NCBI GenBank assembly: GCA_964542745.1
Contig: CAZIVR010000001.1
Location: forward strand, 43,041-107,040
Source: an uncultured bacterium
GTDB taxonomy: Bacteria > Eisenbacteria > RBG-16-71-46
Reading direction: 5' to 3'
DNA length: 64,000 nt
Part shown: piece by piece, positions 4,086-61,263 of the stretch
Layout of the letters: the number at the start of each line of letters is the position of its first letter
How positions within the stretch are numbered: the first letter of the stretch is position 1
Made by a program: the position numbers and the translations under genes
The notes under the pieces: generated by a model
The model's database searches: none
Told to the model about the DNA's origin: nothing
Seen by the model: the letters and a program-made list of their open reading frames with translations, nothing else

Positions 4086-4103
4086 TTCGCAAGACGGTGC
4101 GAC

Positions 4104-4504: not shown

Positions 4505-4532
4505 TGTATAGCAAGACCGGCCGCGAAATCAA
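4505..4532 (-). promoter_or_regulatory. Putative sigma70 promoter of hup
   Basis: On the - strand: TTGATT-16 nt-TATACA with extended -10 TGc. Confidence 0.55.
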
Positions 4533-4668
4533 AGGCAATTCTGGAGGTCGCAGCGCTTTTGGCCAGTGGTGGCGCGGGTCCAAACGATGCATTTTCCGGG
4601 CCGCGTCCAGAGCGGGTGAAACGCGCCTCCCCTCCGGGGAGGCCGGAGGGGAGGTGTGGAGGGCCGAG

Positions 4669-7284: not shown

Positions 7285-7396
7285 GCGGTGGCTCCAGAAG
7301 GGGAGTGGTCACGCCGGGTGCGGAAGCCGGTCTCAACCGCGATTCGAGGCGCGCAAAGTGTAGCGAGGGGCGGCGCGCCGCGTCCACCGCGGATTG

Positions 7397-42493: not shown

Positions 42494-43616
42494 GGACGGT
42501 CACCCGGTGGATCGAATTGTTGGCGTAGCCCGCGGCGTTCGCGCGCGCCGCGACGGGCTGGGTCTCCCCGGCCGCGTCGGTCGCACGCGCCGCCAGCTCC
42601 AGCGCGCCCGACGCCGGCACGTCCACGCGCAGCTCCCAGCGGCGCCACGCGAACGGACCGGCCTCGGGGCCGAGCGGCGCCTCGTGCCACGTGGCCATGC
42701 CGTCCGAGGACACTTCGACCCGCCGGAGCGGCCGCCCGCTCCACGCCCAGCCGGCCACCGCGAGCGGCCCCGGGCTCACCTCGTCCCCGTCGCGCACCGA
42801 GGTGACCAGCGACTTCACCCGCACGTCCTCGACCGGCGGCGCGGTCGCGGGGTTCTCGCCCGGATACTGGTAGCGGTAGCCGCGCACCATGAAGTGATTG
42901 TCGCTCGGGGTGCGCTCCACGCGAACGCCGGTCACCCACTTGGTCGAAGCCATGCCGTACCAGCCGGGCACGATCGCCCGGCACGGCGCGCCGTGGAGCG
43001 GCGGGAGCGGCGCGCCGTTCATCTCGAGGGCGAGCAGCACGTCGGCGCGCGCCTTGTCGCCGGGCACGCTGCGCAGGAACGGGGGCACCTTGCCGAACGG
43101 CGAGCGGTCGGCGGCCTCGAACCACACGTGCTCGGCGTCGTCCGGGGCGCCCGCCCGCTCGAGCACGTCGGCGAGCCGCACGCCCCGCCAGCGGGCGTTG
43201 CCCACCGCCCCGTGTTCCCACTGGGTGCCGGAGGTGTTCGGCAGCCGGTAGAGGCCGCGGCCGTTGCCCGCACACTCGATCACGCAGGTCACCTCGTGCT
43301 GCGGCATCGCGCGCAGGTCGTCGAGACTCAGCGTGAGCGCGTTCCGGACCCGGCCGGAGACCTGCAGCCGCCACTCGCGCCGGACGAGGTCCGGGGCCGG
43401 CAGGTGGCACCGCACGAAGAACAGCTCGTTCGGGGTGAGCGCGGCGCGGTCAAGGGCGGGGAGCGAGGTCTCCCACTGGCGCGGCCACAGGTTGCGCTCG
43501 AGCAGCGGGGGTCCCGACGCGGCGGCCAGCGCGCCGCGCAGCGCGGGCAGGGCGGTGGCGGCCGCGGCGCCGAGCCCGGCGCGGGCCGCGAGCTGGAGCG
43601 CCGACCGGCGGTTCAT
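42480..43616 (-). CDS. sorA: Tat-exported sulfite oxidase family molybdoenzyme (SorA-like)
   Basis: MNRRSALQ Tat motif, FFVRCH, IECAGNGR (Mo-ligand Cys), GAVGNARW, HGAPCRAIVPGWYGMASTKW, C-terminal Ig dimerisation domain; ATGA overlap with the upstream gene. Confidence 0.9.
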   Translation of the reverse strand: MNRRSALQLAARAGLGAAAATALPALRGALAAASGPPLLERNLWPRQWETSLPALDRAALTPNELFFVRCHLPAPDLVRREWRLQVSGRVRNALTLSLDDLRAMPQHEVTCVIECAGNGRGLYRLPNTSGTQWEHGAVGNARWRGVRLADVLERAGAPDDAEHVWFEAADRSPFGKVPPFLRSVPGDKARADVLLALEMNGAPLPPLHGAPCRAIVPGWYGMASTKWVTGVRVERTPSDNHFMVRGYRYQYPGENPATAPPVEDVRVKSLVTSVRDGDEVSPGPLAVAGWAWSGRPLRRVEVSSDGMATWHEAPLGPEAGPFAWRRWELRVDVPASGALELAARATDAAGETQPVAARANAAGYANNSIHRVTVRARA

Positions 43617-44851
43617 GCCCCGACCGTCCGCGCGCAGTCGCGCGCGATGCGGGCCACGATCTCCGCGACCTGGCGGTAGCCGGTCTCGAGCAGGAAGGCC
43701 GGATGGCGCCCGTAGGACTTGGCGCCCGCCAGGTAGAAGTCGGGCTCGGGGCCGGTGAGCGCCTCGATGCCCGCGGCAGGCACCGCGAGGCAGTCGTCGC
43801 CGGCCTCGAGCAGGGTCGCGGCGAGCTTCATCGGTCCCTCGGTCGCGTAGCACGAATGCACCTGCAGCTCCCGGAAGATCGAAAGATCGGGGTGGTATCC
43901 GCAATTGACGATCACGTGGTCCACTTCCTCGAGCCGGGCTTCCTCGCCGAGCACCAGCGCCACGCGGTAGCGGTGGGTCGCCGAGTTGAACTCGAAGCCC
44001 TCGACGCCCGCGCCGCCGATGTGGACGACCGCCGGGTCGCTCCCGGCGAGCAGCGCCCGGGCGCGCGCCAGCAGTTCGCGGCGCGCGGGGAGCGGATCGC
44101 CCTCGACCGGCGCGTAGAGACGTTCGCGCGGGGCGCGCGTCACCCACGCCACGGAGGTTCCGGGGACCTCGGCGGCGAGGCGCGCGAGATCGCTCACGAC
44201 GGTGGCGGCGCTCGTGCCGGAGCCGATCACCATGACGCGCTTGCCCGCGTAGCGCTCGCGCCGGAGCCCGAGCACGTCGTCGAGGTGGTAGGAGAGCTGC
44301 GGGGCGACGTACAGCTCCTGCCGCGCGGGGATGCCGCCCAGCCCGGCCCAGTTCGGGTTGCCGTAGGTGCCCGAGGCGTCCACCACCGCGAACGCGTGCA
44401 GGAAACTCTCGCGACCCCCCGCGTCGCGCACCAGCAGCCGGAAGGGGTGCTCGCGCCGCTCGGGCTTCGCGATCCAGTCGCCCTTGAGCGCCCCGCGGCG
44501 GCTCAGGTGGACCACCTTCGCGTGGGCATGCACGCGCCCGGCGAGCGCGGGAAGGCGCGAGGCGGGCCCGAGGGCGCGCTCGGCGAACTCGGCGCCGGTC
44601 GGGCATTCCTCCGCCGGGGGCGCGGTCCAGTCCGACCGCTCGAGATGGGCGCGGGTCGCGGGCCCCACGTTCATGCGCCAGGGCGTGAACATCCGGACGT
44701 GGCCCCACGCGATCGGGTGCGAGGCCACCTCGCCGCGCTCGAAGACGTGCACGTCGAGCCCGGCGTCGAGGGCGGCGAGGGCGGTTTCGAGGCCGACGGG
44801 GCCGGCGCCGATCACGGCGAGGGTGTTGCGGGCGGGCTGGGACTGGGGCAT
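43613..44851 (-). CDS. FAD/NAD(P)-dependent oxidoreductase (flavin monooxygenase-like)
   Basis: GAGPVG FAD site, WGHVRMFTPW, VVDASGTYGNPN, GSGTSA NAD(P) site, GAKSYGRHPAFLLETGYRQV. Confidence 0.85.
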   Translation of the reverse strand: MPQSQPARNTLAVIGAGPVGLETALAALDAGLDVHVFERGEVASHPIAWGHVRMFTPWRMNVGPATRAHLERSDWTAPPAEECPTGAEFAERALGPASRLPALAGRVHAHAKVVHLSRRGALKGDWIAKPERREHPFRLLVRDAGGRESFLHAFAVVDASGTYGNPNWAGLGGIPARQELYVAPQLSYHLDDVLGLRRERYAGKRVMVIGSGTSAATVVSDLARLAAEVPGTSVAWVTRAPRERLYAPVEGDPLPARRELLARARALLAGSDPAVVHIGGAGVEGFEFNSATHRYRVALVLGEEARLEEVDHVIVNCGYHPDLSIFRELQVHSCYATEGPMKLAATLLEAGDDCLAVPAAGIEALTGPEPDFYLAGAKSYGRHPAFLLETGYRQVAEIVARIARDCARTVGA

Positions 44852-45033: not shown

Positions 45034-46911
45034 TCACCGGCCCGGCGGCAGCGAGTCGCGGAGCATGCGGAAGCGCTCGGCGAGCAGCGGGGCCTCGGGA
45101 TTGAGCCGCCGGGTTTGTTCGAGCTGGGCGAGCGCCTCCGGCCAGCGGCGCTCGAGGATCTCGAGCGTGGCGAGCGTGCTCCGCGCCCGCCAGTTCCATT
45201 CCGACTCGCGCAGTTGCCGCTCGAGCTCGGCGCGCAGCGCGCGGCGGGCTTCCGGATCGAAGTGCGCGGCATGCATCCGTTCCGGCAGCGCGCGATCCCC
45301 CGCCGGGAGGATCGAGTAGCGCTCGCGCGCGGCCAGGTCGGAAAACCTCCCGGACCGCCGCAGCCAGAGCGCCGCCACGTCGTCGAGGAACACCAGCGCC
45401 CAGGTCGAGTCGGCGTCCAGCCGGTCGAGCAGGTCCTGCCGCGGGAACTGCGTGCGCGGCAGCAGCAGGTAATCGAACGAATACTTCGCCTCGAGCGCCC
45501 GCCACACCGGCTCCCGTTCCCAGGAGAGGGCGTAGAGATCCTGGTCGGCGCGGGAGCCGGTGACGTGGATGTCCATGAACGGCAGGCGGTCGCGCTGCGG
45601 CCAGAAGCGCCACAGCTGGTAGCCGGCGAAGTGGAAAGCCCCGAACGATCTCCCGCGCACGCCGTGCTTCTCGATCCAGTCGCAGGCCCGCACCGGGAAG
45701 GCCCGCCAGTCGAGGCCGAACCCCGGCCGCCACGGCTCCTGGAGGAGCTGCGGGACCGCGCCGAGCGCGATCAGGAGCGAGGCCCCGGCCGCGCGCGCCG
45801 GGGCGCTTCGCAGCGCAGGCGGCAGGCGCAGGGACTGGACCCCCCACGCGAGATCCCGCGCGAAGATCGGCGCCGCCGCCACGCACAGGAACCCGAGGAA
45901 GCGCTGCGCGCCGAGCGCCGAGGCGAAGAACGCCGCGTAGACCAGCGTGTCCACGAGGTCGCCGCGGCGCCGCACCAGCCGCGCGAGCCACAACCCCCAC
46001 GCCAGCAGCATCCACACGAGCAGGCCGTCGCGCCGGTGCGCCTCCCACGTGATCGGCTTCAGCTCGAGGATCATTCCGAAGAGCGGCTGGTGGCGCCATT
46101 CGAGCAGGTACTGGAAAGGCTGCCACAGGGCCCGCCATCCGAAGGGATTCACGAAGCACGCGGCCGCGCTCGCGGCCAGCACGAGCGCGAGCCGGGCCGG
46201 CGGCCGCGCTCCCGGCCGGCCGCGCCCCGCGGCGAGCCCTTCGGCCAGCACGTGGAATCCCGTGAGCGCGAGCGGGAGGTAGTAGGAGACGTGGGCGTTG
46301 GCCCAGACCCACGTGATCGGGACGATCCACGCGGAGCGGTCGGGCCCGCCGCGCCGGCGCGTCTCGAGGATCCACACCTGGAGCGCGAGCAGCAGGCACG
46401 CGAGCGTTTCGGGACGCACCATGGAGCGCGACCGATAGAGCAGCGCGCACCACGCGATCGCCACCACCACCGTGACCCCGCGCGCCCCCATCCGTCGCGC
46501 CGCCAGTCCGGCGAGCGCGAAGGTCGCGAGCGTGAAGCCCCACCGCCACGCCATCAGGCCCCATTCCCCGGCGAGCGCGTAGAACGGCCAGAGCAGCGCG
46601 CGGAACAGCCACGACGGCAGCAGGTAGGGCTCCCCGAACGTGGGCCACGTCCACACGTTGGTGCGGGGGATCGCGTGGCCCTCCCAGAGCGTGCGTCCCA
46701 CCCGCAGGTGCTGCCAGAGGTCGGGATCGTAGAGCCGGTATGAGACGCCGAGGCCGATCACGACCGCCGCGACCCCGAGCACGAGCAGCCGGTAGGGGCG
46801 GGGGAGCGGGAGGGAGACGGCGGGACGGCCGGAAGGCTTGCTCGCTCGCTTCAGGGGGATCCTCCGGACCGACTCGGGCGACCATCCGCCCCTCCGCCAC
46901 GTCCCGGGCAT
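45034..46911 (-). CDS. Polytopic membrane protein (GT-C-like) with C-terminal TPR
   Basis: DPDLWQHLRVGR...PSWLF, RPET, WANAH, NPFG, about 11 TM helices, periplasmic tail and TPR-like helix pair. Start uncertain. Confidence 0.65.
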   Translation of the reverse strand: MPGTWRRGGWSPESVRRIPLKRASKPSGRPAVSLPLPRPYRLLVLGVAAVVIGLGVSYRLYDPDLWQHLRVGRTLWEGHAIPRTNVWTWPTFGEPYLLPSWLFRALLWPFYALAGEWGLMAWRWGFTLATFALAGLAARRMGARGVTVVVAIAWCALLYRSRSMVRPETLACLLLALQVWILETRRRGGPDRSAWIVPITWVWANAHVSYYLPLALTGFHVLAEGLAAGRGRPGARPPARLALVLAASAAACFVNPFGWRALWQPFQYLLEWRHQPLFGMILELKPITWEAHRRDGLLVWMLLAWGLWLARLVRRRGDLVDTLVYAAFFASALGAQRFLGFLCVAAAPIFARDLAWGVQSLRLPPALRSAPARAAGASLLIALGAVPQLLQEPWRPGFGLDWRAFPVRACDWIEKHGVRGRSFGAFHFAGYQLWRFWPQRDRLPFMDIHVTGSRADQDLYALSWEREPVWRALEAKYSFDYLLLPRTQFPRQDLLDRLDADSTWALVFLDDVAALWLRRSGRFSDLAARERYSILPAGDRALPERMHAAHFDPEARRALRAELERQLRESEWNWRARSTLATLEILERRWPEALAQLEQTRRLNPEAPLLAERFRMLRDSLPPGR

Positions 46912-47011
46912 CGGGCCCGGCGAGTCTAGCCGCCGTCCCGGGGCCACGCCATGCCCGGGGGTGGCCGCGCCCCGGCCGACTCCGCCCGCCCCGCCCCGGG
47001 GCACGGCGGGC

Positions 47012-47050
47012 GAAAAAAGTCCTTGCGCGATCCCCGCCAATTGCTAGGCT
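47012..47050 (+). promoter_or_regulatory. Putative sigma70 promoter with UP-like A-tract
   Basis: GAAAAAA, then TTGCGC (47023-47028), 16 nt, TGcTAGGCT (-10 at 47045-47050). Confidence 0.55.
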
Positions 47051-47603: not shown

Positions 47604-48764
47604 CTACCCCTGGAATTCCGCCACGATCGGCGCGTGGTCGGAGGCGCGTCCGGGACCGTCGAGCCCCGGGACCGTTCGGCCGCTTCCCCCCAGCCAGCCG
47701 CGTCCCGCGAACCAGTCGAGCCGCAGCGCGCCCCGCCGTTCCGCGAAGCCCATCACCGCGCGGCCCACCGGCCCGAGCACGCGGCGCAGCAGCGCCGCCT
47801 CGTCGATCCGGTCGAGGCGGAGCTGCAGCGTCGGCTCGAAGTCCACGAACGAGGTCCACTCGAATCCCGCCTCCCGGAGCAGGTCGAAGAGCGGCTCGCG
47901 GAACCGGCCGCGGTCGGGGCGCGCGAGGCGGCGGCGCAGCGGTCCCGGCGGCCAGAACAGCAGCGCCCCGGCGCCGGTGAGCGGCGAGTGCCAGAGGCCG
48001 CGGTCGAAGGTGTGCGTGTTCCAGTCCCCGGCGAAGATCACGGGCCGCCGCTCGTCGCCGAGGGCTTCGAGGATCAGGCGCACCTGCGCGGCGCGATGCG
48101 CGCGGGTGCGATGCACCTCGAGGTGGGCGGCCACCGCCACGAACGGCGCCCCGGGCCGCTCGACCTCGACGATCAGCCCGATGTTCCGGCCCAGCATGCG
48201 CTCGGCGTCGAACTGAACCTCCTCGGGGCTCGGCAGGTCCACGATGCGCACCCGGCCGAGTGGCCAGCGCGACAGGATCGAGAGGCCGAACAGCGACTCC
48301 TCGTTCTCGCGGGTTCCCGCGGTGAGCGCGTCGTCGTCGCGGCCGATCGTGGTCTCGAGGAAGAGCGGCACCCACACGCCGCCGCGGCCGAGCGCGCGGG
48401 CCAGGTCGGCGGTCACGTCGCGATTCCCGGCCCGGGCCATGCCGAGGTCGATCTCGTTGAAGAACAGCAGGTCGGCGTCGCGCAGGTCCGGGTGCTCGCG
48501 GAGCGCCGCCTCGACCTGCTCGTAGCGGTTGCCGTGCTCGACGTTCCAGTGCACGGCCCGCAGGCGGGGCGGCGAGAGGGGCGCCGGCGCGGCGGGCGGG
48601 GGCTCGGGAATCGGGTAGCGGTGCACCCGGTGGAGCAGGGCGTGGAAGCGCGGCTCGAGCGCGCTCCATTCGCGCGACGCGCGCATCGCGGCGAGGGTGC
48701 GGTGGCGCGCGATCGCCCGCTGGAGCGCGCGGCACTCGACGAGGAGATCGGGGTCGCGTCGCAT
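47604..48764 (-). CDS. Endonuclease/exonuclease/phosphatase (EEP) family protein
   Basis: HWNVEHG, FNEID, AHLE, FAGDWNT, LDW, SDHAPI. Confidence 0.9.
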   Translation of the reverse strand: MRRDPDLLVECRALQRAIARHRTLAAMRASREWSALEPRFHALLHRVHRYPIPEPPPAAPAPLSPPRLRAVHWNVEHGNRYEQVEAALREHPDLRDADLLFFNEIDLGMARAGNRDVTADLARALGRGGVWVPLFLETTIGRDDDALTAGTRENEESLFGLSILSRWPLGRVRIVDLPSPEEVQFDAERMLGRNIGLIVEVERPGAPFVAVAAHLEVHRTRAHRAAQVRLILEALGDERRPVIFAGDWNTHTFDRGLWHSPLTGAGALLFWPPGPLRRRLARPDRGRFREPLFDLLREAGFEWTSFVDFEPTLQLRLDRIDEAALLRRVLGPVGRAVMGFAERRGALRLDWFAGRGWLGGSGRTVPGLDGPGRASDHAPIVAEFQG

Positions 48765-48850: not shown

Positions 48851-51145
48851 ATGTCGCGACGCTCCCGGCTGCGCCTCCCGACCCTCGCCGTACCCGGTTT
48901 CCGGCGGCCGGAGCCCTTCCCCGAGGACTTCCTGTTCGGGGTCGCCACTTCGGACCACCAGTGCGAGGCCTACGAGCCGCGCTGGGAGGACGTGCGCGAC
49001 CGCTGGGAGCGGCTCGACGGGCGCACGCCGCGCGGGCGGGCCACCGACTTCTGGAACCGTCACCCCGAGGACATCGCGCTGGCGCGCGACCTCGGCTGCC
49101 GCGCGTTCCGCTTCTCGGTGGCGTGGTCCCGGGTGGAGCCCGAGCCCGGGCGCTGGGACCTGGAGGCGCTCGACCACTACCGGAAGCTCGCCGAACGGAT
49201 CGCGGACGCGGGCATGACGCCGATCCTCACGCTCCACCACTTCACGTGGCCGATCCACCTCGAGGATCGCGGCGGAATGACCGCCCCCGAGTTCCCGGTG
49301 TGGTTCGCCGACTACGCCGGGCGCGTGGCGGAGGCGGCGGGCGAGCGGGTGGGCTACTGGATCACGTTCAACGAGCCCACCTACCTGCCGATGGGCTACA
49401 TCAAGCGCTGGGGCGCGCGGTCCTTCCTGATGCCGCCGGGGCTGGGCCGCGCTTCCAGCGACGAGCAGGTGCGGGCCTCGGCGTTCCTGATGCGCAACCT
49501 GTTCCTCGCCCACCGCGAGGCCCGGCTCCGGATCCGCGCCCGGCGGCCGGGCGCGAAGGTGGGCGCCAACCCCTTCGTGCTCGGTTTTCCCGCCGGGGTG
49601 CAGGGATTCCTCGACCGCCGGGCCGCCGCCGCGCGCGAGCCCGAGACGTGGATCCGCCGCGAGCGCCGCCTGCTCGAGGGCTACCCGGACCTGGTGGCCG
49701 GCGTGGTGGACGTGATGTTCGGCGCCTACACCCGCACGCCGGACCGCGAGGCCCAGATGATGTTCTCCGAGGGCTACGCCGAGTCGCGGCCCATGCTGAT
49801 GGTGGCGGACGGCGACCCCGCGCGCGAGGCCTGCGACCTCGAGCACGCCCGCGTCGCCGCGGTGCGCGGGAGCGGCGCGGCCGACGTGGTGCCGCGCTGC
49901 GGCGTGGCGCTGGATCTGAGGTGGGAGCCGAAGCTGGAGCGCTGCCTCGCGCGGCTGCGGCGCGGCGCCGTGCGCGCCGTGCTGAGCGACGACCTGCTGC
50001 TCGCGCCGGTCGCCGAAGCCGAGCCCGGCCGCTGGCGGCTGCTGCCCCTCGACGTGCCGCCCCAGCAGTACGCCGCGGCGGTCGCGCTCAATCGCGAGAG
50101 CCTGCTGCGCGAGGTGGACGAGGCGATCCGCGAGGTGGTCGAGGCGCGTGCCCCCGGGCCGCCCCACGCGCCGGAGCGGCTGGCGCGGCTCGGGACCCCC
50201 GCGCCCGGCGGCGAGGAGGCCTCGGCGCACGCGCCGCCACGGCCCGCGACGACGCGCGAGACCTGGCTCTCGGGCGACCCGGTCGCGGCGGTGCGGCGGC
50301 GCGGCGAGATCGTGGTCGGCCTGCGGCGCGGCGGATCGCCCTTCGCGTGGCGCGATCCCGCGACCGGGGAGTGGCGCGGCCTCGAGGTGGAGATCGCGCG
50401 GGCGCTCGCGCGCAGGCTGTTCGGCGATCCCTCGCGCGTCCGCTTCCTCGCCCTCGACCTGCGCTGGCGTGCCGGCGCCGTGCACAGCTTCTGGCTGTGG
50501 CCGCTCGAGTTCATCCACCGGGTGGTGACGTTGTTCTCGACCGTGGCCAACAGCGACTGGTGGAACCTCGGCATGGCGGGGCGGCTCCCCGGCTTCCTGT
50601 GCCCCGCCGAGTGCGCGGGCCAGATGGACTTCGTGGGCTTCGACTACTACTGGGGCGTGCAGGAGCTGCGCTGGGACCGGATCCGCGGGCTGCTCGACGC
50701 GATCAGCTTCCGGTTCGCGCGCGCCCCGGTCCATCCCGGCGGCCTGCGCCGCCTGCTCGCGCGCTACCAGCGGATGTTCCCGGGGATGGAGATCCTGATC
50801 TTCGAGAACGGCTGCATCGAGCGCGCCGACGGCGTGAGCCGGGAGGAATACCTGCGCACCCACCTGTGGGAGGTGCAGAAGGCGATCGCGGCGGGGATCC
50901 CGGTCACGGGCTACGTGTGCTGGAGCCTCACCTCGAACCGCGAGTGGGGGCTGCCCTTCGGGCCCGACAGCGACTTCGGCCTCTACCACGTGGACCTCGA
51001 CCGCGACCCCGCGCTGAAGCGCGTCGCGACGCCGTCGGCCGAAGCGTTCCGGGAGATCGCGCGCACTCGCGACGCGGTTCCCAGCGAGGGCGAGGCCCTG
51101 CGCGAGTGGATGAGGCGCTTCGGCGTGAGGCGGAAGGGAGGCTAG
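48851..51145 (+). CDS. Glycoside hydrolase family 1 with inserted family-3 solute-binding domain
   Basis: FLFGVATSDHQCE, FRFSVAWSRVEP, TLHHFTWP, TFNEP (acid/base), FVGFDYY, IFENG (nucleophile), WSLTSNREW, FGLY; SBP-like block at about 49700-50470. Confidence 0.9.
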   Translation: MSRRSRLRLPTLAVPGFRRPEPFPEDFLFGVATSDHQCEAYEPRWEDVRDRWERLDGRTPRGRATDFWNRHPEDIALARDLGCRAFRFSVAWSRVEPEPGRWDLEALDHYRKLAERIADAGMTPILTLHHFTWPIHLEDRGGMTAPEFPVWFADYAGRVAEAAGERVGYWITFNEPTYLPMGYIKRWGARSFLMPPGLGRASSDEQVRASAFLMRNLFLAHREARLRIRARRPGAKVGANPFVLGFPAGVQGFLDRRAAAAREPETWIRRERRLLEGYPDLVAGVVDVMFGAYTRTPDREAQMMFSEGYAESRPMLMVADGDPAREACDLEHARVAAVRGSGAADVVPRCGVALDLRWEPKLERCLARLRRGAVRAVLSDDLLLAPVAEAEPGRWRLLPLDVPPQQYAAAVALNRESLLREVDEAIREVVEARAPGPPHAPERLARLGTPAPGGEEASAHAPPRPATTRETWLSGDPVAAVRRRGEIVVGLRRGGSPFAWRDPATGEWRGLEVEIARALARRLFGDPSRVRFLALDLRWRAGAVHSFWLWPLEFIHRVVTLFSTVANSDWWNLGMAGRLPGFLCPAECAGQMDFVGFDYYWGVQELRWDRIRGLLDAISFRFARAPVHPGGLRRLLARYQRMFPGMEILIFENGCIERADGVSREEYLRTHLWEVQKAIAAGIPVTGYVCWSLTSNREWGLPFGPDSDFGLYHVDLDRDPALKRVATPSAEAFREIARTRDAVPSEGEALREWMRRFGVRRKGG

Positions 51146-51182: not shown

Positions 51183-51494
51183 CTATCCCGGGGGCAGGGA
51201 TCGCGGGCCGCGGGAGGGCGGCGCCGCGGGCGTTCCCTTCCCGCGGGTCGCGATCCAGCACGCGAGCGTCCAGCTCGGGACGAGATCCACGAAGGGCACC
51301 AGCTCGGCGAGGAACGTGGGCAGGAACGCCCAGTGCCAGCCGATCAGCGCGCTGAGCAGCAGCGCGACCGAAACGTCGAGCACGTTGTTGGCGGGCGAGG
51401 CGAAGCCGGGCCCGAACACCGGGAACACCGCGATCTGGAGCGCGTCGGCGGCGAGCGCCACGAACCAGGCGAGGCGTGGGCGGGGACGGAACAC
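51183..51494 (-). CDS. Small hypothetical membrane protein
   Basis: 103 aa; AADALQI...LIGWHWAFLPTFLAELVPFVDLVPSWT hydrophobic pattern; GTG start. Confidence 0.65.
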   Translation of the reverse strand: MFRPRPRLAWFVALAADALQIAVFPVFGPGFASPANNVLDVSVALLLSALIGWHWAFLPTFLAELVPFVDLVPSWTLACWIATRGKGTPAAPPSRGPRSLPPG

Positions 51495-51703
51495 GCGCGC
51501 ATGATTGGCGCGCGACGGGCGCGGCGCAAGCGGCCGCGCGCGGCGGCCCCGGCGGCGCGCGCCGCCGCCCCCGCGCGTCGCGGCGGCGTGGATCGCGGCC
51601 GCGCGCGTTGCCCCCCCGCCGCATCCCTCCTAGACTCCGGGCATCCAACCCCCGCGTGTCCTCCCCCCACGCGACCCCCGGCCGCCAGGAGACCGCCCGA
51701 TCC

Positions 51704-53209
51704 ATGTCCCGTCCCAGCACCCTCGGTGAACTGAAGGCCTCCGGTTATCGCTCCCGGTCCGTCAAGGACGAGTTGCGCGCCAACGTCATCGCGCGGCTCC
51801 GTTCCGGCGCGCCGCTGTTCCCGGGCATCGTCGGCTACGAGCACACCGTCGAGCCCCAGATCGTGAACGCCCTGCTGTCGCGCCACGACTTCATCCTGCT
51901 CGGTCTGCGCGGCCAGGCCAAGACCCGCCTGCTGCGGGCGCTCGTGCAGTTCCTCGACGAATGGATTCCCGAAGTGGCGGGCTGCCCGCTCCACAGCGAC
52001 CCGTTCCTGCCGCTCACGCACCACGCGCGCGTGCAGCTCGACGCCCACGGCGACGCCACGCCCGTGGCCTGGATCCACCGCGACCAGCGCTACCAGGAGA
52101 AGCTCGCCACGCCCGACGTCACGATCGCCGACCTGATCGGCGACCTCGACCCGATCAAGGCCGCGACGCTCCGGCTCGACTACTCGGACGAGCGCGTCAT
52201 CCACTACGGCATCATCCCGCGCACCAACCGCGGGATCTTCGCGATCAACGAGCTGCCGGACCTCCAGCCGCGCATCCAGGTGGGGCTCCTGAACATGCTC
52301 GAGGAGAAGGATTTCCAGATCCGCGGTTTCCCGGTGCGCATTCCGCTCGACGTGGCGATGGTGTTCTCGGCCAACCCCGAGGACTACACCAACCGCGGCA
52401 ACATCATCACGCCGCTGCGCGACCGCATCAATTCCCAGATCATCACGCACTACCCGCTGACGCGGGAGCAGGGCATGGAGATCACGGCGCAGGAATCGTG
52501 GACGCGCCGGGAGGGCGGCGTGGAGGTGCTGGTGCCCCCCTTCGTGCGGGAGCTGATCGAGGAGGTGGCGATCCAGGCCCGCAAGAGCGAGTACGTGGAC
52601 CAGAACTCGGGCGTGTCGGCCCGGCTCCCGATCGCGCTGATCGAAAACCTGGTCTCCAACGCGGAGCGGCGGGGCCTGGCCACCGGCGAGGCGCGCGTCG
52701 TGACCCGCATCTGCGACCTGCAGAACGCGGTTTCGGCCGTGAGCGGCAAGGTCGAGCTGGTGCTGGAGGGCGAGCAGGAGGGAACGCTCAACGTGGCGCG
52801 CGCGCTGCTCGCCCGGGGCGTGAAGGCGCTCTTCAGCCAGCGCTTCCCCGACGCCTTCAGCCCCAAGCGCCGGCGTTCGCGCTCCGCCGCCGCCGAGGGC
52901 GGGGACGAGCCGCCGGCCGCGTCCGAGTACCGAACCGTGCTCGAGTGGTTCGCGAGCGGCAACCACCTGGAAATCTCGGACGACGTGCCGCAGGCGGAGT
53001 ACGCGGAGCGGCTCACTGAGGTGAAGGGGCTGCGCGAGCTGGCGGCGAAGTACCTGGAGCCGAAGAGCCCCGAGGAGCACGCGGTGGCGATGGAGCTGGT
53101 GCTCGAGGGCCTGCACCAGCATTCGATGCTGTCTCGCGAGCGTACCGGCGAGGCGCGCACGTCGTACAAGGACATGCTGAAGAGCATGCTCACGGGGCTC
53201 GGCGATTGA
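51704..53209 (+). CDS. Magnesium chelatase/MoxR-like AAA+ ATPase
   Basis: ATG 51704; GLRGQAKT Walker A variant, GIFAINELPDL Walker B, SANPEDYTNRG, PLRDR. Confidence 0.88.
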   Translation: MSRPSTLGELKASGYRSRSVKDELRANVIARLRSGAPLFPGIVGYEHTVEPQIVNALLSRHDFILLGLRGQAKTRLLRALVQFLDEWIPEVAGCPLHSDPFLPLTHHARVQLDAHGDATPVAWIHRDQRYQEKLATPDVTIADLIGDLDPIKAATLRLDYSDERVIHYGIIPRTNRGIFAINELPDLQPRIQVGLLNMLEEKDFQIRGFPVRIPLDVAMVFSANPEDYTNRGNIITPLRDRINSQIITHYPLTREQGMEITAQESWTRREGGVEVLVPPFVRELIEEVAIQARKSEYVDQNSGVSARLPIALIENLVSNAERRGLATGEARVVTRICDLQNAVSAVSGKVELVLEGEQEGTLNVARALLARGVKALFSQRFPDAFSPKRRRSRSAAAEGGDEPPAASEYRTVLEWFASGNHLEISDDVPQAEYAERLTEVKGLRELAAKYLEPKSPEEHAVAMELVLEGLHQHSMLSRERTGEARTSYKDMLKSMLTGLGD

Positions 53210-53666: not shown

Positions 53667-54758
53667 ATGCGCTTCGACTACTCGAAATGGAAGGGCCCGC
53701 GCCCGGACGATCTCCGCTTCCTCAAGCAGATGATGGAGATCTACCGCAACCTGCTGCTCCAGACCGGCGGCGACGCGGACGAGGCGCTCAAGTGGATGGA
53801 GCACTTCGGCGAGCAGTACGGGTTCTTCAACGAGAAGTTCGGCCTCGACGACTTCAAGAAGATGCTCGAGGAGTCGGGCGAGGCCGAGCGCACCCCGCAG
53901 GGCTACCAGGTGACGCCGAAGGGGGAGCGGCGCATCCGGCAGGATTCGCTGAACGAGATCTTCAACACCCTGCAGGCGGGCGGGGCCGGGGACCACCGCA
54001 CGCCTCAGGCGGGCAAGGGCGGCGAGCGCCTGAGCGAGACGCGCGCCTACCAGTTCGGCGACGACCTCGCGAACCTCGATCCGCTGGGATCGGTGAGCAA
54101 CGCCCTGAAGCGCGGGGGCGTGGACGATCTCTCGCTCACCGAGGACGACCTCTCGGTGTTCGAGACCGAGCACCTGTCCTCGTGTGCCACGGTGCTCATG
54201 GTGGACGTGAGCCACAGCATGATCCTGTACGGCGAGGACCGGATCACGCCGGCCAAGAAGATCGCGCTCGCGCTGGCGCAGCTGATCCAGACGCGCTACC
54301 CGAAGGACACGCTCGACGTGGTCCTGTTCGGCGACGACGCGCTGCAGGTGCCGCTCAAGGACCTCATGAAGATCCAGGCCGGGCCCTACCACACCAACAC
54401 TCGCGCCGGGCTCCAGATGGCGAGGCGCATCCTCGAAGGGCGCAAGGGAGTCAACAAGCAGATCTTCATGGTCACCGACGGGAAGCCCTCGGCGATCCGC
54501 GAGTTCGGCCGGATCTACAAGAACCCGTTCGGCCTCGATCCCAAGATCGTGAACAAGACGCTCGAAGAGGCTTCGTACTGCCGCAAGAAGCGCATCACGA
54601 TCACGACCTTCATGCTCGCCACCGACGGGCCGCTGCTGGATTTCGTGAGGAAGCTCACCGAGCTCAACCACGGCCGCATCTACGAGACCGATCCTTCGAA
54701 CGTGGGCGCCTACGTGTTCCGCGACTTCGTGCGGAACCGGAGGAAGCGGCTGCACTGA
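53667..54758 (+). CDS. VWA domain-containing protein
   Basis: MIDAS motif DVSHSM, T (HTNT), D (VTDGKPS). Confidence 0.9.
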   Translation: MRFDYSKWKGPRPDDLRFLKQMMEIYRNLLLQTGGDADEALKWMEHFGEQYGFFNEKFGLDDFKKMLEESGEAERTPQGYQVTPKGERRIRQDSLNEIFNTLQAGGAGDHRTPQAGKGGERLSETRAYQFGDDLANLDPLGSVSNALKRGGVDDLSLTEDDLSVFETEHLSSCATVLMVDVSHSMILYGEDRITPAKKIALALAQLIQTRYPKDTLDVVLFGDDALQVPLKDLMKIQAGPYHTNTRAGLQMARRILEGRKGVNKQIFMVTDGKPSAIREFGRIYKNPFGLDPKIVNKTLEEASYCRKKRITITTFMLATDGPLLDFVRKLTELNHGRIYETDPSNVGAYVFRDFVRNRRKRLH

Positions 54759-55610: not shown

Positions 55611-55799
55611 CGTCGGCGGGCGGGCGGGGGGCCGGCGCGTCCCAAAACTTCGGCCCCCGCCACGGTGGCCCGGCTGGTAGACTTGCCGGCGCGGCGAGCC
55701 TCCCGAAGCGTTCCATCCTGCGCTGACGGACGCTCGCCGCGACCCGCATTCCGGCAGCTCGACTTCCGCGCCTCGCCTCGCACCGATTCCGGAGACCTC

Positions 55800-58700
55800 A
55801 TGCCGCGCTCTCCGCGCCCGCACCATGCCCTGCTGGTCGCCGCCCTGCTGGTTTCGCTCCCGACGACTCCTTCGCCGGCCGCGGTGCTCACGAACTACGT
55901 GCTTCAGTGGGGTTCGTTCGGGTCCGGCAACGGGCAGTTCAACCAGCCGGTCGGGGTCGCGGTGGACTTCAGCGGAAACGTCTACGTCACCGACATGGGC
56001 AACGACCGCGTGCAGGTGTTCAACGGCTCCGGCGTGTGGCAATACAGCTTCGGCGGCACCGGCAGCGGCCCCGGGCAGTTCCTCCGGCCTTACGGCATCT
56101 CGATCAACGGCGGCGACCTGTACGTCGTGGACACCGGCAACTACCGGGTTCAGAAGTTCACGCTGGCGGGTTCGTTCCTGCTCCAGTGGGGTAGCCAGGG
56201 ATCGGGGAACGGCCAATTCCAGCGCCCGCGCGGCGTGGCCGCGAGCGGGACCGGCAGCGTCTTCGTCACCGACGACAGCCTCGACCGCGTGCAGTCGTTC
56301 GACGGGCTGGGCGCGTACCAGTTGCAATGGGGCACGACCGGCAGTTCGCCCGGCGAGTTCCGGGGCCCGAACGGCATCGTGGCCGACGCCGGAGGCGGCG
56401 CGGTGATCGTGGCCGACTCCTCGAACCACCGCATCCAGCGTTTCGACAGCCTGGGGAACCTGCTCAACCTGTGGGGCACCCAGGGCGGCGGGAACGGCCA
56501 GTTTCAGGGCCCGGTCGGGATCGCGTCCACCGGCTTCGAGTATTTCGGTGTGGACACCGGCAACGACCGGATGCAGAAGTTCAACTACTCGTACCTCTAC
56601 GCCACGCAGTGGGGGGGCACGGGGACCGGAAACGGCCAGTTCGTGCGTCCGCATTCGGCGGCCGTGGACGGCAGCTTCATCTACGTAACCGACACCGGGA
56701 ACCATCGCGTGCAGAAGTTCGGCCCGCCCTCCGATGGCGCCTGCGCCACGTGCTTCAGCCCGCCCGAGGGTTGCTGCGCGGCGCTGCCCCAGGTCGGCGG
56801 CCCGTGGACCCGCATCGCCGTCGGGACCCGGGAGTCCGATCCGGGCGGCTCGTGGCCCTACGTGGTGACGATCTTCGATCTCACTTCCACGCCGCTGCCG
56901 CCCGAGGACGCGAACTGGGCGTCCATCACGCGCTACTCCGGCCCCGGGGCGGGCTGGCGTGCGGATTCCCTGGGCAGCGTGTTCGGGCTCACGCTCGACT
57001 CCTACGGGAACATCTTCGTGGCGCACAGCTCGTGCTACGCCAACGACCGGATCGGCCAGGTTTTCGGCGGCGCGCCGGGCGCGATCTACCGCCTCGACGC
57101 CGTTTCCGGCGCGATCTCGACGTTCTGCGTGCTGCCGAACCAGCAGGATCCGATGCTGGCCGTGGGCGACGACTACCCGGGCCTCGGCAACATCACTTAC
57201 GACTGCCAGCACCAGCAGTTCTTCGCCACCAACCTCGAGGACGGGAGGATCTATCGGATCCAGCCCAACGGCGTGAACGGCACGACCGGCAGCGTCGTCG
57301 AGACGTTCGATCCGCTGGCCCCCGACAACGGGCTTCCCGGGTGGGCGGCGGTGGGGGAGCGGCTGTGGGGCGTCCAGGTGCACGGCAATCGCGTGTACTA
57401 CGCGGTGTGGGCGCTCGACCTCGAGTCGGGCAACACGCTCAACGAGATCCGCAGCGTCGGCCTGACGCTCGCGGGCGCGTTCGCCGCCGGAACCGACCAG
57501 CACGAGCTCTGGCTGCCGTTGCTCACCCCCTACGACTTCTCGTTCCCGGTGGCGGACATCAGCTTCTCGAGCCAGGGGCGAATGCTGCTCGGCGAGCGAG
57601 GCATCTCCACGATGTCGTATCCGTATCCGCACTACGCCCGCGCGCTCGAGTACCAGTGCTCGGGCGGCTGCTGGGTGCCGGCCAACGGCTATTCGCTGGG
57701 CGTCGGCAATGGCGAGAACTCCGAAGGCGGCGTGGACTACGACCTGCATCCATTCACCGGCCCGTCCGGCACGATCGGCCGCGTGTGGGTGACGACCGAC
57801 GCCATGCACAGCCCCAGCCAGCCTCCGTACACCGATTACGTGTACGGCTATCAGGGCCTGCGCCCGAACCTGCCCTCGGGGTCCGTGGTCAACAGCATGT
57901 TGATCGACTCGGACGGGGCGACCGTGAACTTCGCCGACAAGTCTCAGAGCGGCGACGTCGAAGTGCCCGGCTGCCCCGTGGTCGAGGTCGGCGCGATCTG
58001 CGGACGCAAGTTCCTCGATGCGAACCGCAACAGCCTCAAAGACCCGGGCGAAAGTTACGCGGGCGGCTGGACGATCCGTGCGACGGGCCCGGGCGGCACC
58101 TACACGACCGTGACGGACGCGAACGGCAACTACTGCTTCACCAATCTCGTGACCGGAACCTGGACCCTGAGCGAGGTCGGCCAGCCCTCGTTCGTCCAGA
58201 CCGCGCCCGCGAGCGTCACCTACAGCGTTTCGCTCGCCGGCGGGCAGACGCTGTTCGGCTACGACTTCGGCAACTACGCCTGCGCCCAGGGCGGCCCGGG
58301 CTGCGTCCAGCCGCCGACCGGCATGTCGGCGTGGTACCCGTTCGCGCCTACGCCCGGCGCGGGCACGACCGCCGCCGACGTCACCCACCTGTCGCCCGCC
58401 CGCAACGCCGCGCAGCTCGTGGGCGGCGCGGCGATCGAGCCGGGCGACCCCGGGAGTTCGGGCGGTCCCGCGAGCTTCGGCGGGCTGCGCCTTGCGACGG
58501 CCGCGGACTACGCCCGCGTGCCCTACGCCGACCAGCTCGACCTCAACTTCGGCACCGGGTCGTTCTCGCTGGACGCCTGGGTTCGCCCCGATCCCGGAAT
58601 CGCTGGCGAGCGCACGATCGTCGAGAAGCGCCACCTCAACTCGTCCTCGCCGTATCGCATGCTCGGCTGGGCCCTCTACCTCGACGGCCAGCAACTCACG

Positions 58701-60198: not shown

Positions 60199-60288
60199 CC
60201 CCATGGCGCTCCCGCTCCGCACGGTGCACGGATGCCCGGCCGCGGAACACCCAAGGACGGACCCCCGCCCGTGAGCCTTCAACCCCAC

Positions 60289-61263
60289 ATGCCCACGCCT
60301 CGATCGAGCCGCTTTCGCGTCCCGCTGACAGCGCTGCTGCTGGCCGCGGTCGCGCTGGGCCTCGGCTCCTGCTCGATCAAGCGCATGGCGGTCAAGAGCG
60401 TCGCCAACTCGATCGCCAGCGGGCCCGACGTGTACGGCACCGACGACGATCCCGAGCTGGTGCGCGACGCGCTGCCCTTCGGGCTCAAGACCATGGAGTC
60501 GCTGCTCGCGGTGGTGCCCGATCACGAAGGCCTGCTGCTCGCCGCCTGCCGCGGCTACACGCAATACGCCGCGGCGTTCGTGCAGTCCGAGGGCGACCTG
60601 CTGGTCAGCAGCGACTACCCGCGCTCGCAGCACCTGCACGGGCGGGCGTTCCGGCTTTACCTGCGCGCGCGCGGCTTCGGGCTGCGCGGGCTCGAGCGCC
60701 GCTACCAGGGCATCGGCCGCGCGCTGGAGTTGGACCCCGCGCGCGCCGCGGCGCGCATCGGCAAGCGCGACGTGCCGATGCTGTTCTGGACCGCGGCGTC
60801 GTGGGGTTCGGCGATCTCGCTCGGCAAGGACCAGCCCGAGATGCTGGCCGACCTGCCCGCGATCCGCGCGCTGCTCGAGCGCGGGCTGGCGCTCGACGAG
60901 GCGTTCGAGGGCGGCGCGTTCCACGAGGCGCTGATCGTGCTCGACGCGCTGCCCGAGGCGATGGGCGGCTCGCCCGAGCGCGCCCGCGGGCACTTCCGGC
61001 GCGCGATCGAGCTCTCGGGCGACGCGCGGCCCGGCCCCTACGTGACGCTCGCCACCAGCGTGTCGGTGGCGAAGCAGGATCGCGCCGAGTTCCGCTCGCT
61101 GCTCGAGAAGGCCCTGACGTACGATCCCGACAAGAACCCGTCGCAACGCCTGGCGACCCTCGTCCTGCAGCGCAAGGCCCGCGCGCTGCTCGAGCGCGAG
61201 GCCGAGTTCTTCATCGAAGACGCACCCGCTCCCGATTCCCTTTCCACCGAGGACAACCGATGA
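60289..61263 (+). CDS. tatT: TRAP transporter TatT component family lipoprotein
   Basis: Lipobox LGSC; DDDPELVRDALPFGLKTMESLL, all-helical; directly upstream of dctP/dctQM. Confidence 0.85.
   Translation: MPTPRSSRFRVPLTALLLAAVALGLGSCSIKRMAVKSVANSIASGPDVYGTDDDPELVRDALPFGLKTMESLLAVVPDHEGLLLAACRGYTQYAAAFVQSEGDLLVSSDYPRSQHLHGRAFRLYLRARGFGLRGLERRYQGIGRALELDPARAAARIGKRDVPMLFWTAASWGSAISLGKDQPEMLADLPAIRALLERGLALDEAFEGGAFHEALIVLDALPEAMGGSPERARGHFRRAIELSGDARPGPYVTLATSVSVAKQDRAEFRSLLEKALTYDPDKNPSQRLATLVLQRKARALLEREAEFFIEDAPAPDSLSTEDNR

Follow-up and report, generated by a model that had tools for sequence, protein, structure and literature searches.

The open reading frame at 48851..51145 (+ strand) of the 64,000-nucleotide stretch of DNA analysed here (the window), which derives from an uncultured bacterium of the Eisenbacteria lineage, encodes a family 1 glycoside hydrolase (GH1) with the following domain arrangement: with near certainty, its (β/α)8 barrel is interrupted between strands β5 and β6 by one complete, circularly permuted Venus-flytrap domain of solute-binding protein family 3 (SBP3). 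The frame runs unbroken over 764 residues plus stop, and its GC3 of 0.96 is as expected for coding sequence in a window of 72% GC, with long open reading frames that overlap it in other frames being high-GC artefacts. A permuted SBP3 domain grafted into the TIM barrel had been proposed from the sequence alone (the original prediction), and this proposal is borne out by split and reversed HMM matches, by profile alignment with hhalign, by AlphaFold modelling and by Foldseek comparison.

The host enzyme is recognized by PF00232 (GH1) with 183.6 bits (Pfam; cut-off 22.6, E 6e-54) in a match that is split into two stretches, the first of which aligns positions 3–219 of the model with aa 21–240. 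Delimited by PF00232, DSSP and residues conserved in 118/118 family sequences, the N-terminal part of the barrel (β1–β5, aa 21–247; 48911..49591, +) contains Gln37, His130 and, at the end of β4, the acid/base motif TFNEP (49364..49378, +). The C-terminal part (aa 547–764; 50489..51142, +) comprises the remaining α5 region and β6–β8, with Tyr599/600, Glu652, Trp691 and Glu698-Trp699, and carries the nucleophile motif IFENG (50798..50812, +) at the end of β7. The codons of the two catalytic glutamates, Glu175 (49373–49375) and Glu652 (50804–50806), lie exactly where they had been predicted; 477 residues separate them, the usual spacing between acid/base and nucleophile in GH1 being ~186 residues. 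Q37, H130, N174, E175, Y600, E652, W691, E698, W699 and F709 do not vary among the 118 family sequences, and with the exception of the catalytic glutamates we take these residues to have the roles in the –1 (glycone) subsite that they have in GH1 structures, with the Glu marking non-phosphorylated sugars. By its sequence, the protein is a GH1 retaining β-glycosidase with a complete catalytic and –1 subsite apparatus, and it is predicted to be active. A 6-phospho-β-glycosidase was considered and rejected on the grounds of the invariant Glu698, as was a myrosinase-type enzyme, given the presence of the acid/base Glu. With TIGR03356, the NCBIfam equivalog model for BGL, the protein scores 198.4 bits, i.e. 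far below the cut-off of 478.5, and therefore should not be named a standard β-glucosidase.

Like other GH1 enzymes such as Streptomyces Bgl3 (1gnx), Thermotoga maritima BglA (1od0) and BGL167 (4r27), the protein combines a (β/α)8 fold with an NEP motif after β4 and an ENG motif after β7, and it shares the full –1 subsite (Gln, His, Asn, Tyr, Trp, Glu-Trp) and a cytoplasmic location with GH1 β-glucosidases and galactosidases. Unlike in these enzymes, however, the barrel is split by a foreign domain of ~285 aa, and the α5/β6 region is divergent and has an invariant motif of its own. This motif, WWNLGMAGRLPGFLCPAEC (aa 570–588; 50558..50614, +), directly follows the insert, lies between the exit from the flytrap and β6 and is the most conserved family-specific motif (pattern WW.LG.AG.L...FLCP.EC, in which W570, W571, G574, G577, L579, C584 and P585 are invariant).

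Including connectors and linker, the extra sequence between β5 and β6 amounts to about 285–300 residues, to which the originally given size of ~260 aa has to be corrected. PF00497 (SBP_bac_3) matches it with 42.1 bits (Pfam; cut-off 26.4, E 8.8e-11), again in two stretches. At higher resolution, NCBIfam models align aa 278–428 with positions 76–235 of the 250-position LAO-binding model and aa 476–540 with positions 32–93 of two other SBP3 models. Since the first of these segments falls on later and the second on earlier model positions, the SBP3 order is reversed, and the canonical order of secondary-structure elements is absent. A phmmer search against the PDB matched GlnH of M. tuberculosis (6h1u; E 1.4e-19), with insert residues 201–288 aligned to chain residues 24–109 and insert residues 29–172 to chain residues 113–255. 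PF00232 and PF00497, the two profiles named in the original prediction, both score above threshold, and Pfam, NCBIfam and phmmer agree on SBP3 matches that are split and in reversed order. When an alignment of 35 family members was de-permuted by placing part B before part A and aligned to canonical SBP3 with hhalign, 222 collinear columns were obtained (E 8.4e-39, score 253, probability 99.96%), whereas the native-order profile yielded 154 columns only (E 1.1e-22, score 155).

Along the polypeptide, β5 is followed by an entry connector of two helices (aa 248–259 and 264–276; 49592..49681, +; DSSP, pLDDT 77–92) and then by SBP3 part A (aa 278–434; 49682..50152, +), which comprises canonical β3, the ligand loop, lobe 2, the return strand and the C-terminal helix and contains Thr294, Arg299 and Asp380. 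The original C-terminus of the SBP is tied to its original N-terminus by a disordered, Pro/Ala-rich linker (aa 435–475; 50153..50275, +) that is poorly conserved, with a pairwise identity of 0.32 and a median length of 49 aa across the family. SBP3 part B (aa 476–546; 50276..50488, +) then supplies canonical β1-α1-β2 and the start of α2 of lobe 1, with Arg492/Arg493 and Arg540. The nucleotide ranges first given for the two parts (~49700–50150 and ~50276–50470, equivalent to aa 284–434 and 476–540) were correct. The new termini of the permuted flytrap are located in helix α2 of lobe 1, and it is lobe 1 that is joined to the barrel by pairs of entry and exit helices, with lobe 2 having no covalent link to the barrel.

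A full-length AlphaFold model computed with 118 sequences reached a pLDDT of 87.6 and a pTM of 0.87, with low confidence limited to aa 1–15 and aa 435–462 (pLDDT below 50 for the latter); the high pTM suggests that the arrangement of the modelled domains relative to each other is fixed. Foldseek top matches to the whole model are all GH1 enzymes (TM normalized to target ~0.70, E 1e-18). The insert modelled by itself in native order (pLDDT 84.2, pTM 0.78) matches amino-acid-binding SBP3 structures in Foldseek with an rmsd of 2.7–3.0 Å and a TMt of 0.61–0.63 over ~157 of ~220 columns, the most that a sequential aligner can achieve with a permutant, the other ~70 residues being placed by high pLDDT only. 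Closed or liganded SBP3 structures fit the insert model better than apo structures. The earlier caveat that the two halves might not match SBP3 or fold together thus falls away: both are matched by SBP3 profiles, and both are modelled with confidence in the two AlphaFold runs.

Ligand-binding roles have been described for Ser164, Arg169, Asp250 and Arg147 of GlnH (PMC6069109), and the roles assigned here to flytrap residues all come from this one paper, as a literature search on the binding-site residues of PEB1a gave no result. In the alignment with GlnH, Thr294, Arg299, Asp380 and Arg540 occupy these positions. Thr294, Arg299 and Asp380 represent the α-amino-acid triad, i.e. Ser/Thr plus Arg for the carboxylate and Asp for the ammonium group (96–99% conserved), and Arg540 (50468..50470, +; alignment, DSSP), located ~6 residues ahead of re-entry into the barrel, corresponds to the side-chain-carboxylate binder Arg147. 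Among the family sequences, Thr or Ser is found at position 294 in 113/118, Arg299 in 117/118, Asp380 in 112/118 and Arg540 in 116/118; these residues are among the most conserved of the entire flytrap, against an insert identity of just 0.44–0.53, and they are kept in the clade of the window, too. Such retention at 95–99% is hard to explain without binding, and the flytrap has probably kept its ability to bind a small molecule that bears an α-amino-acid moiety.

The part of the pocket facing the ligand side chain seems to differ between clades. Besides Arg147, GlnH uses Thr162 and Trp232 to bind the side-chain carboxylate. Where GlnH has Thr162, the clade of the window has Ala292, and 58 of the remaining 101 sequences have Thr; at position 362, the equivalent of GlnH Trp232, the window has Leu and 71/101 of the others have Tyr. 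Relative to the family majority, the clade of the window shows the replacements T292A, T342G and Y362L. Thus, most family members appear to carry a GlnH-type Asp/Glu pocket signature, which the Eisenbacteria-like clade of the window fits in part: here, the side-chain pocket has probably been remodelled (Ala292, Leu362, Trp358, Arg493, Trp500), with the binders of the α-groups and Arg540 kept. That several side-chain-pocket residues in this clade depart from the Asp/Glu signature is a point against the gating mechanism considered below.

Judged from its sequence, the protein is cytoplasmic. Its GH1 core begins with residue 21, an N-terminus of 10–25 residues precedes the core in nearly all members of the family, and an SBP-type export signal (signal peptide, lipobox) is absent, such that the absence of a signal peptide noted originally is confirmed by the lengths of the N-termini; Tat or Sec export was rejected, as there is no room for a signal before the GH1 core. 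Genes for ABC-transporter permeases or ATPases do not adjoin the gene in the window and show no consistent association with it in 90 related loci. Upstream, at a distance of 86 bp, lies a divergent gene of the endonuclease/exonuclease/phosphatase family (47604..48764, –; Pfam PF03372), in an arrangement that is shared with related loci L082, L083 and L084, absent in L085 and conserved solely in the close clade of the window; we regard this gene as context and claim no functional link. Clustering of the neighbours in 81 loci and the window revealed no universal partner gene. Short-chain dehydrogenases occur near the gene in 17 of these loci, but this family is too common for the recurrence to be interpretable. 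In several phyla, homologues adjoin genes for patatin, α/β-hydrolases, GMC oxidoreductase, 3-β-HSD-like and ADC-like proteins, i.e. functions of a lipid/sterol type.

The closest SBP3 proteins, GlnH of M. tuberculosis (6h1u) and PEB1a of C. jejuni (2v25), both belong to cluster F and bind Asp/Glu. They have in common with the insert the two-lobed flytrap, the conserved Ser/Thr, Arg and Asp for the α-amino-acid moiety and the Arg for an acidic side chain; in contrast to them, the domain described here is permuted, embedded in an enzyme and cytoplasmic, and it has no signal peptide or lipobox, no partner ABC transporter and no membrane sensor. The best natural analogue for a possible function is MltF, in which a covalent link likewise connects a glycan-cleaving enzyme with an SBP-like domain of family 3 and occupancy of this SBP3-like module by muropeptide turns on the lytic transglycosylase domain (PMC10746161). 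MltF is an analogue and not a relative, however, as its catalytic part, a lysozyme-like SLT fold, is not homologous to a GH1 barrel; it also differs in being periplasmic and in having an N-terminal tandem SBP module in normal order. Domain insertion combined with circular permutation has been used to build switches from maltose-binding protein and β-lactamase. Such engineered proteins likewise unite an enzyme with a periplasmic-binding-protein fold through insertion and circular permutation, and ligand binding modulates catalysis; yet these are laboratory constructs, whereas the present fusion is natural, ancient and conserved, with the binding protein as the guest and the enzyme as the host. 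An engineered chimera of a xylanase and a xylose-binding protein, a switch of the same kind, is reported to be stimulated by xylose (PMC4896006) and, together with MltF, provides a precedent for the control of glycan cleavage by an SBP. Ionotropic glutamate receptor domains such as GluR0 (1ii5 and 2pyy, both among the Foldseek matches to the insert model) also feature an SBP3-fold flytrap within a larger protein, with the chain crossing twice; their organization is the inverse, though, as there a channel is inserted into the SBP with linkers leaving from lobe 2, whereas here the SBP is inserted into an enzyme with both links in lobe 1.

What, then, could an amino-acid-binding domain do within a glycosidase? 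Most likely, either β-glycosidase activity or aglycone recognition would depend on an amino-acid-type ligand, two possibilities that the original prediction had already raised. In the first case, the flytrap would bind such a small molecule and close, and its occupancy or closure would be transmitted to the barrel to switch or tune hydrolysis. A point against this mechanism is that the two connections reach lobe 1 at a single site: unlike in glutamate receptors, the barrel cannot be pulled by closure, and coupling would therefore need either contacts or the Arg540 helix. Two possible routes can be envisaged: via Arg540, which is placed at the start of the helix returning to the α5/β6 region of the barrel, or via lobe 2 acting as a lid. 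Glutamate is very abundant in the cytoplasm and a high-affinity glutamate sensor would hence stay saturated, which argues against gating, and no recurrent sign of regulation linked to amino acids emerges from the gene neighbourhoods in the window and the related loci. On balance, we see somewhat less than an even chance that the state of the flytrap controls glycoside hydrolysis, and it is slightly more tentatively still that we propose the family as natural, ancient ligand-gated glycosidases, in which a permuted amino-acid sensor in the TIM barrel would switch sugar hydrolysis on or off. If so, a single polypeptide would couple the release of carbon from a β-glycoside in the cytoplasm directly to the amino-acid (nitrogen) status. 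If the flytrap does control catalysis, nature would have produced a counterpart to engineered domain-insertion switches, and the family could serve both as a tractable model of how domain insertion gives rise to allostery and as a ready scaffold for building biosensors or glycosidases under metabolite control.

Alternatively, the flytrap may be a module for substrate recognition that grips an amino-acid-like aglycone part and thus serves specificity rather than regulation, with the substrate being a β-glycoside of an amino acid, an amino-lipid, a peptide or a similar conjugate whose bond would be presented to the GH1 pocket. The conserved α-amino-acid-binding residues fit this reading equally, the position of the motif at aa 570–588 is as expected for a new composite site, and the lipid/sterol-type neighbour enzymes in several phyla suggest a specific conjugated substrate, even though this neighbourhood is not conserved family-wide and is absent from the window. 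That some proteins of the SBP3 class bind sugar–amino-acid conjugates (opines, Amadori compounds) also speaks for aglycone capture. By sequence topology, however, the chain passes between barrel and flytrap at the start of β3 and in α2 of lobe 1, a face which in canonical SBP3 would point away from the cleft, so that a direct channel from cleft to pocket is not obvious; moreover, no candidate substrate is known. We consider aglycone capture rather unlikely.

Still less probable is that the flytrap has lost small-molecule binding altogether and has become a structural, oligomerization or protein-docking domain on an ordinary cytoplasmic β-glucosidase or galactosidase. The replacements T292A, T342G and Y362L in the pocket of the window's clade would be in line with such a loss, as would the faster evolution of the insert, which shows mean pairwise identities of 0.44–0.53 as compared with 0.61–0.63 for the barrel. 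It is the retention of Arg299, Asp380, Thr294 and Arg540 throughout the family, this clade included, that stands against it.

A chimeric assembly, a frameshift or a mis-joined contig fusing GH1 and SBP genes has virtually no probability, as nothing specific beyond the general caution over an uncultured, metagenome-derived source supports it, and the unbroken frame, a uniform GC3 of 0.94–0.98 over all parts of the gene, a GH1 barrel that is incomplete unless both flanks are present and, above all, the same architecture in hundreds of independent genomes exclude it. All 118 full-length proteins (650–830 aa) among the best 120 database matches carry both PF00232 and PF00497, and the remaining two, although cut off by contig ends, retain the insert. 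Among species-representative genomes, relatives are encoded by 418 stretches; these belong to at least eight bacterial phyla, with cyanobacteria, Eisenbacteria, Chloroflexota, Verrucomicrobiota and Vulcanimicrobiota among the lineages, and include complete chromosomes of cultured cyanobacteria. Examples of homologues from cultured strains are WP_016876662.1 and BAZ52881.1. The search for orthologues originally envisaged has thus uncovered a widespread architecture with hundreds of full-length homologues rather than a one-off. Between pairs of sequences, identity in the barrel correlates with identity in the insert (r = 0.89), which together with the uniform GC3 shows that the two have evolved jointly, as a unit, across many phyla.

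In a single-sequence search with the insert alone for other host enzymes among 1.8 billion representatives, the single-stretch full-length matches that were checked were GH1 fusions or fragments thereof, barring two proteins of 503 and 300 aa with an SBP3 match only; with just two matches of E below 1e-30, this search is too insensitive for counting the family. The best matches outside the family were tandem SBP3 proteins, which is expected for any permutant and therefore provides no evidence of ancestry. Few protein families have been studied as well as GH1 and SBP3, yet no description of their combination was found in the literature: full-text searches returned no paper on GH1 enzymes with an inserted permuted SBP3 domain or on natural permuted SBPs in enzymes, and the CIRPIN survey of circular permutations mentions neither the GH1 nor the SBP3 family. 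A look-up of the exact protein sequence gave no match, and in public records, members go under inconsistent names, including 'family 1 glycosylhydrolase' and 'extracellular solute-binding protein'. The family also represents a branch of carbohydrate metabolism that has gone without annotation in cyanobacteria and in many soil phyla known from uncultured members. As members are present in culture-collection strains such as Chlorogloeopsis fritschii PCC 6912, Nostoc sp. NIES-4103 and Fischerella sp. PCC 9431, the gating hypothesis is directly testable.

The window has a G+C content of 72% and, for this reason, long spurious open reading frames in every frame. The real frame of the glycosidase, at 48851-51145 on the forward strand, is unbroken (GC3 0.96, GC2 0.54), and its product is found as an unchanged entry in the protein database (P0001). 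The acid/base motif TFNEP (49364-49378, forward strand; Glu175 at 49373-49375) and the nucleophile motif IFENG (50798-50812, forward strand; Glu652 at 50804-50806) lie exactly where the original prediction had placed them. A distance of 477 residues separates the two glutamates, compared with ~186 in ordinary GH1 enzymes (T. maritima BglA numbering). In a Pfam search, the GH1 profile PF00232 matches the protein in two stretches (183.6 bits, E 6e-54), the first of which places residues 21-240 on profile positions 3-219 of 453, and SBP_bac_3 (PF00497) likewise matches in two stretches, with 42.1 bits against a cut-off of 26.4. With the NCBIfam models, residues 278-428 fall on positions 76-235 of the 250-position LAO-binding model, and residues 476-540 on positions 32-93 of the Asp/Glu and cystine SBP models. 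The top match of the insert among PDB sequences is GlnH of Mycobacterium tuberculosis (6h1u, E 1.4e-19); here, insert residues 201-288 align with chain residues 24-109 and insert residues 29-172 with 113-255, i.e. the canonical sequence is broken between GlnH chain residues 109 and 113, within helix alpha2 of lobe 1. Thus, the two parts of the SBP3 domain do stand in reversed order within a split GH1 domain, as had been proposed.

The family alignment was also cut at these break points and its parts were rejoined in canonical order (alignment A2). The resulting profile matches the single-domain SBP3 protein P0131 in one collinear block of 222 columns (E 8.4e-39, score 253), whereas the profile in native order (A3) matches the same protein in 154 columns (E 1.1e-22, score 155). 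At the level of these profiles, only a circular permutant would be expected to give this contrast. By every testable criterion, the glycosidase is a member of GH1; profile and fold mark the insert as an SBP3 domain, which nevertheless lacks the canonical order, the export and the transporter partner of SBP3 proteins as a class.

A full-length AlphaFold2 model, built from an alignment of the 118 full-length family members, has a mean pLDDT of 87.6 and a pTM of 0.87, with low confidence only at residues 1-15 and 435-462, the latter within the linker. According to DSSP, it contains a standard barrel with beta4 at 169-174 (NEP at its end), beta5 at 236-245, beta6 at 595-602 and beta7 at 648-651 (ENG at its end); from beta5 the chain enters the flytrap via helices 248-259 and 264-276, and it returns to beta6 via helices 537-544 and 547-561 and the motif region 570-588. 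In Foldseek, the whole model groups with GH1 enzymes (TM normalised to the target ~0.70, E 1e-18). A model of the insert only (residues 262-548, from a 28-sequence alignment; pLDDT 84.2, pTM 0.78) resembles amino-acid SBPs including GlnBP, PEB1a, GluR0 and ArgBP, with an rmsd of 2.7-3.0 A across ~157 of ~220 residues, roughly the most that a sequence-order-dependent aligner can reach on a permutant. Also as expected for a permutant, the tandem SBD1-SBD2 protein 6h30 matches across 285-294 columns. Closed, liganded structures are fitted better than open ones (1wdn 0.61 versus 1ggg 0.46; 4psh 0.58 versus 4prs 0.38). Both models are thus confident and match GH1 as a whole and SBP3 in the insert, in agreement with the original prediction. 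The modelled flytrap has two lobes, with part B (residues 476-546, the canonical N-terminal part; pLDDT 88-97 in both models) predicted to pack against part A (278-434); the high pTM suggests a fixed orientation of barrel and flytrap, and both covalent links between them are in lobe 1.

This architecture is not confined to the window. A protein search returned 635 clusters at E <=1e-5; among the best 120 sequences, all 118 of full length (650-830 residues) contain both Pfam domains, and the remaining two (P0018 and P0019) are contig-end fragments in which the insert is still present. Across the prokaryotes, with each species represented by one genome, 418 stretches were found to encode a relative. 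The search for orthologues that had been proposed thus recovers the same architecture in every full-length sequence among the best 120, an artefact is ruled out, and the structural interpretation—drawing together profiles, de-permutation comparison, models and family—is supported. Among the best 80 of the 418 stretches, those closest to the window belong to Candidatus Eisenbacteria (53-54%), and one partial NCBI protein with 73% identity is likewise labelled Eisenbacteria. These 80 include many Nostocales and other cyanobacteria, with the complete genomes of Chlorogloeopsis fritschii PCC 6912 and Nostoc sp. NIES-4103, as well as Chloroflexota, Verrucomicrobiota, Vulcanimicrobiota/Eremiobacterota, Acidobacteriota, a Mucilaginibacter, a Dongiaceae and two Methanotrichaceae MAGs. 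The full-length homologues on Methanotrichaceae-binned contigs (L044:8001-10250 and L053:8001-10289) were either acquired by archaea through horizontal transfer or binned to them in error.

The barrel has a pairwise identity of 0.61-0.63 among the 118 sequences, compared with 0.44 and 0.53 for the two parts of the flytrap and 0.32 for the linker. Since barrel and flytrap distances are correlated (r = 0.89) and GC3 is even along the gene, the insertion looks single and old, with both domains inherited together. When the insert alone was used as query, the matches checked that contain it as one contiguous stretch were GH1 fusions or fragments thereof, except for two short proteins with an SBP3 match alone; the best outsiders were tandem SBP3 proteins. 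In full-text searches of the literature, we found no description of a GH1-SBP3 fusion or of an enzyme with a naturally occurring, circularly permuted SBP. Both component families and the idea of SBP-controlled enzymes are already known; new, as far as could be found, are the topology and the family. A glycosidase with a permuted flytrap is certainly out of the ordinary, and cultured cyanobacteria allow a direct test of it; its parts are familiar, and its mechanism is so far only a proposed one.

Ten residues are invariant in 118 of 118 sequences (Gln37, His130, Asn174, Glu175, Tyr600, Glu652, Trp691, Glu698, Trp699 and Phe709). We take these to be the complete -1 subsite of a retaining beta-gluco/galactosidase, and the predicted catalytic residue set is complete. 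Retention of Glu698 speaks against a substrate with a 6-phospho sugar. In the NCBIfam profile search, the score falls far short of the TIGR03356 equivalog threshold, and the stretch between insert and beta6 carries an invariant family-specific motif, WW.LG.AG.L...FLCP.EC (motif region 50558-50614, forward strand); the aglycone side thus probably differs from that of characterised GH1 enzymes. Two cysteines, Cys83 and Cys584, do not vary in the family and a third, Cys588, is conserved to at least 90%, the latter two lying within FLCP.EC; we know of no such conserved cysteines in ordinary GH1 enzymes, and a metal or redox site adjoining the flytrap exit might be built from them. The GH1 core starts at residue 21, and because only 10-25 residues precede it in nearly all members of the family, the glycosidase is predicted to be cytoplasmic, the absence of a signal peptide having been anticipated. 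Public names are inconsistent (e.g. P0275, BAZ52881.1, and P0270, WP_016876662.1), ranging over 'family 1 glycosylhydrolase', 'extracellular solute-binding protein' and 'Solute-binding protein family 3/N-terminal domain-containing protein'; the protein lacks an export signal.

In GlnH, Ser164, Arg169 and Asp250 contact the alpha-carboxylate and alpha-ammonium groups of the ligand, and Arg147, Thr162 and Trp232 its acidic side chain (PMC6069109). Via the insert-6h1u alignment, the first three correspond to Thr294 (T/S in 113 of 118), Arg299 (R in 117) and Asp380 (D in 112), and Arg147 to Arg540 (R in 116). Thr162 and Trp232 are replaced by Ala292 and Leu362 in the window's clade, whereas 58 and 71 of the 101 others have Thr and Tyr, respectively. 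Most of the family carries a putative Asp/Glu signature. The window's protein comes from a divergent clade in which the ligand pocket is altered: Arg540 and the binders of the alpha groups are kept, the side-chain pocket is remodelled (Ala292, Gly342, Trp358, Leu362, Arg493, Trp500), and a different anionic compound resembling an amino acid is probably bound.

We tentatively favour a ligand-gated glycosidase, in which ligand binding by the flytrap would affect glycoside hydrolysis. Coupling could run into the barrel via the helix that has Arg540—the residue aligned with a GlnH side-chain binder—near its beginning and forms the flytrap's new C-terminus. In the DSSP of the model, this helix continues after a two-residue break as barrel helix 547-561 towards the invariant motif and beta6, which makes such coupling plausible; alternatively, lobe 2 might act as a lid. 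By analogy, SBP-type control of glycan-cleaving enzymes has a natural precedent in MltF, activated once muropeptides occupy its SBP-like N-terminal domain (PMC10746161), and an engineered one in a laboratory-built xylanase/xylose-binding-protein chimera described as xylose-stimulated (PMC4896006). Less likely, the flytrap instead grips an amino-acid-like aglycone. A purely structural role is improbable; the GlnH-equivalent positions are among the most conserved of a flytrap with 44-53% identity on average, and ligand binding thus appears to be under selection.

The glycosidase gene stands alone in the window. Divergent from it, 86 bp upstream, is an endonuclease/exonuclease/phosphatase-family (EEP) gene (47604-48764, reverse strand). 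Directly downstream follow a 103-residue ORF without Pfam match (51183-51494, reverse) and, on the forward strand, a MoxR-like AAA ATPase with weak AAA_5 and Sigma54_activat matches (51476-53209) and a von Willebrand factor A protein (53667-54758), a typical gene pair. Beyond lie a 1466-residue protein with NHL repeats, Laminin_G_3, SdrD B-like and C-terminal FlgD Ig-like domains (55665-60065, forward) and a TRAP-transporter T-component (TAtT) homologue (60232-61263, forward). Relatives with 64-77% identity (L082, L083, L084) also have the EEP gene and a flavoprotein gene (43613-44851 in the window), but one with 55% (L085) lacks both, so that their association may be mere recent synteny. Between these two genes, the window has a 668-residue ORF without Pfam match (45034-47040, reverse; coding-like GC3 0.92); in related loci they are adjacent or separated only by a 71-residue ORF, with none of 668-residue size between them.

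Among 90 loci, no neighbour is universal. A recurring set stands beside homologues in three phyla (Nostoc, Mucilaginibacter and Vulcanimicrobiota; L007:1178-10196, L052:7965-18167, L079:7959-16381), consisting of a GMC oxidoreductase (at times fused to an alpha/beta-hydrolase), an alpha/beta-hydrolase, an acetoacetate-decarboxylase-like protein, a 139-residue unknown and a patatin-like lipase; the metagenomic relative L087 (5001-12193) has only the patatin and acetoacetate-decarboxylase-like genes. This set may reflect a lipid-linked glycoside substrate or a horizontally moving cluster. Fischerella-type loci (L027-L030) contain a GMC oxidoreductase, DUF6765, a 3-beta-hydroxysteroid-dehydrogenase-like protein and an alpha/beta-hydrolase. 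In many Nostocales (L004, L010, L011, L015, L016, L019, L021, L023 and L024, about 750-7980), the glycosidase gene closes a run of four same-strand upstream genes, encoding a 487-residue unknown without Pfam match, a RoxA-like cytochrome c, a P450 with an N-terminal membrane region and a metallo-beta-lactamase-fold protein. As a lead only, these neighbourhoods suggest that the substrate in those lineages may be a glycoside linked to a lipid or terpenoid.
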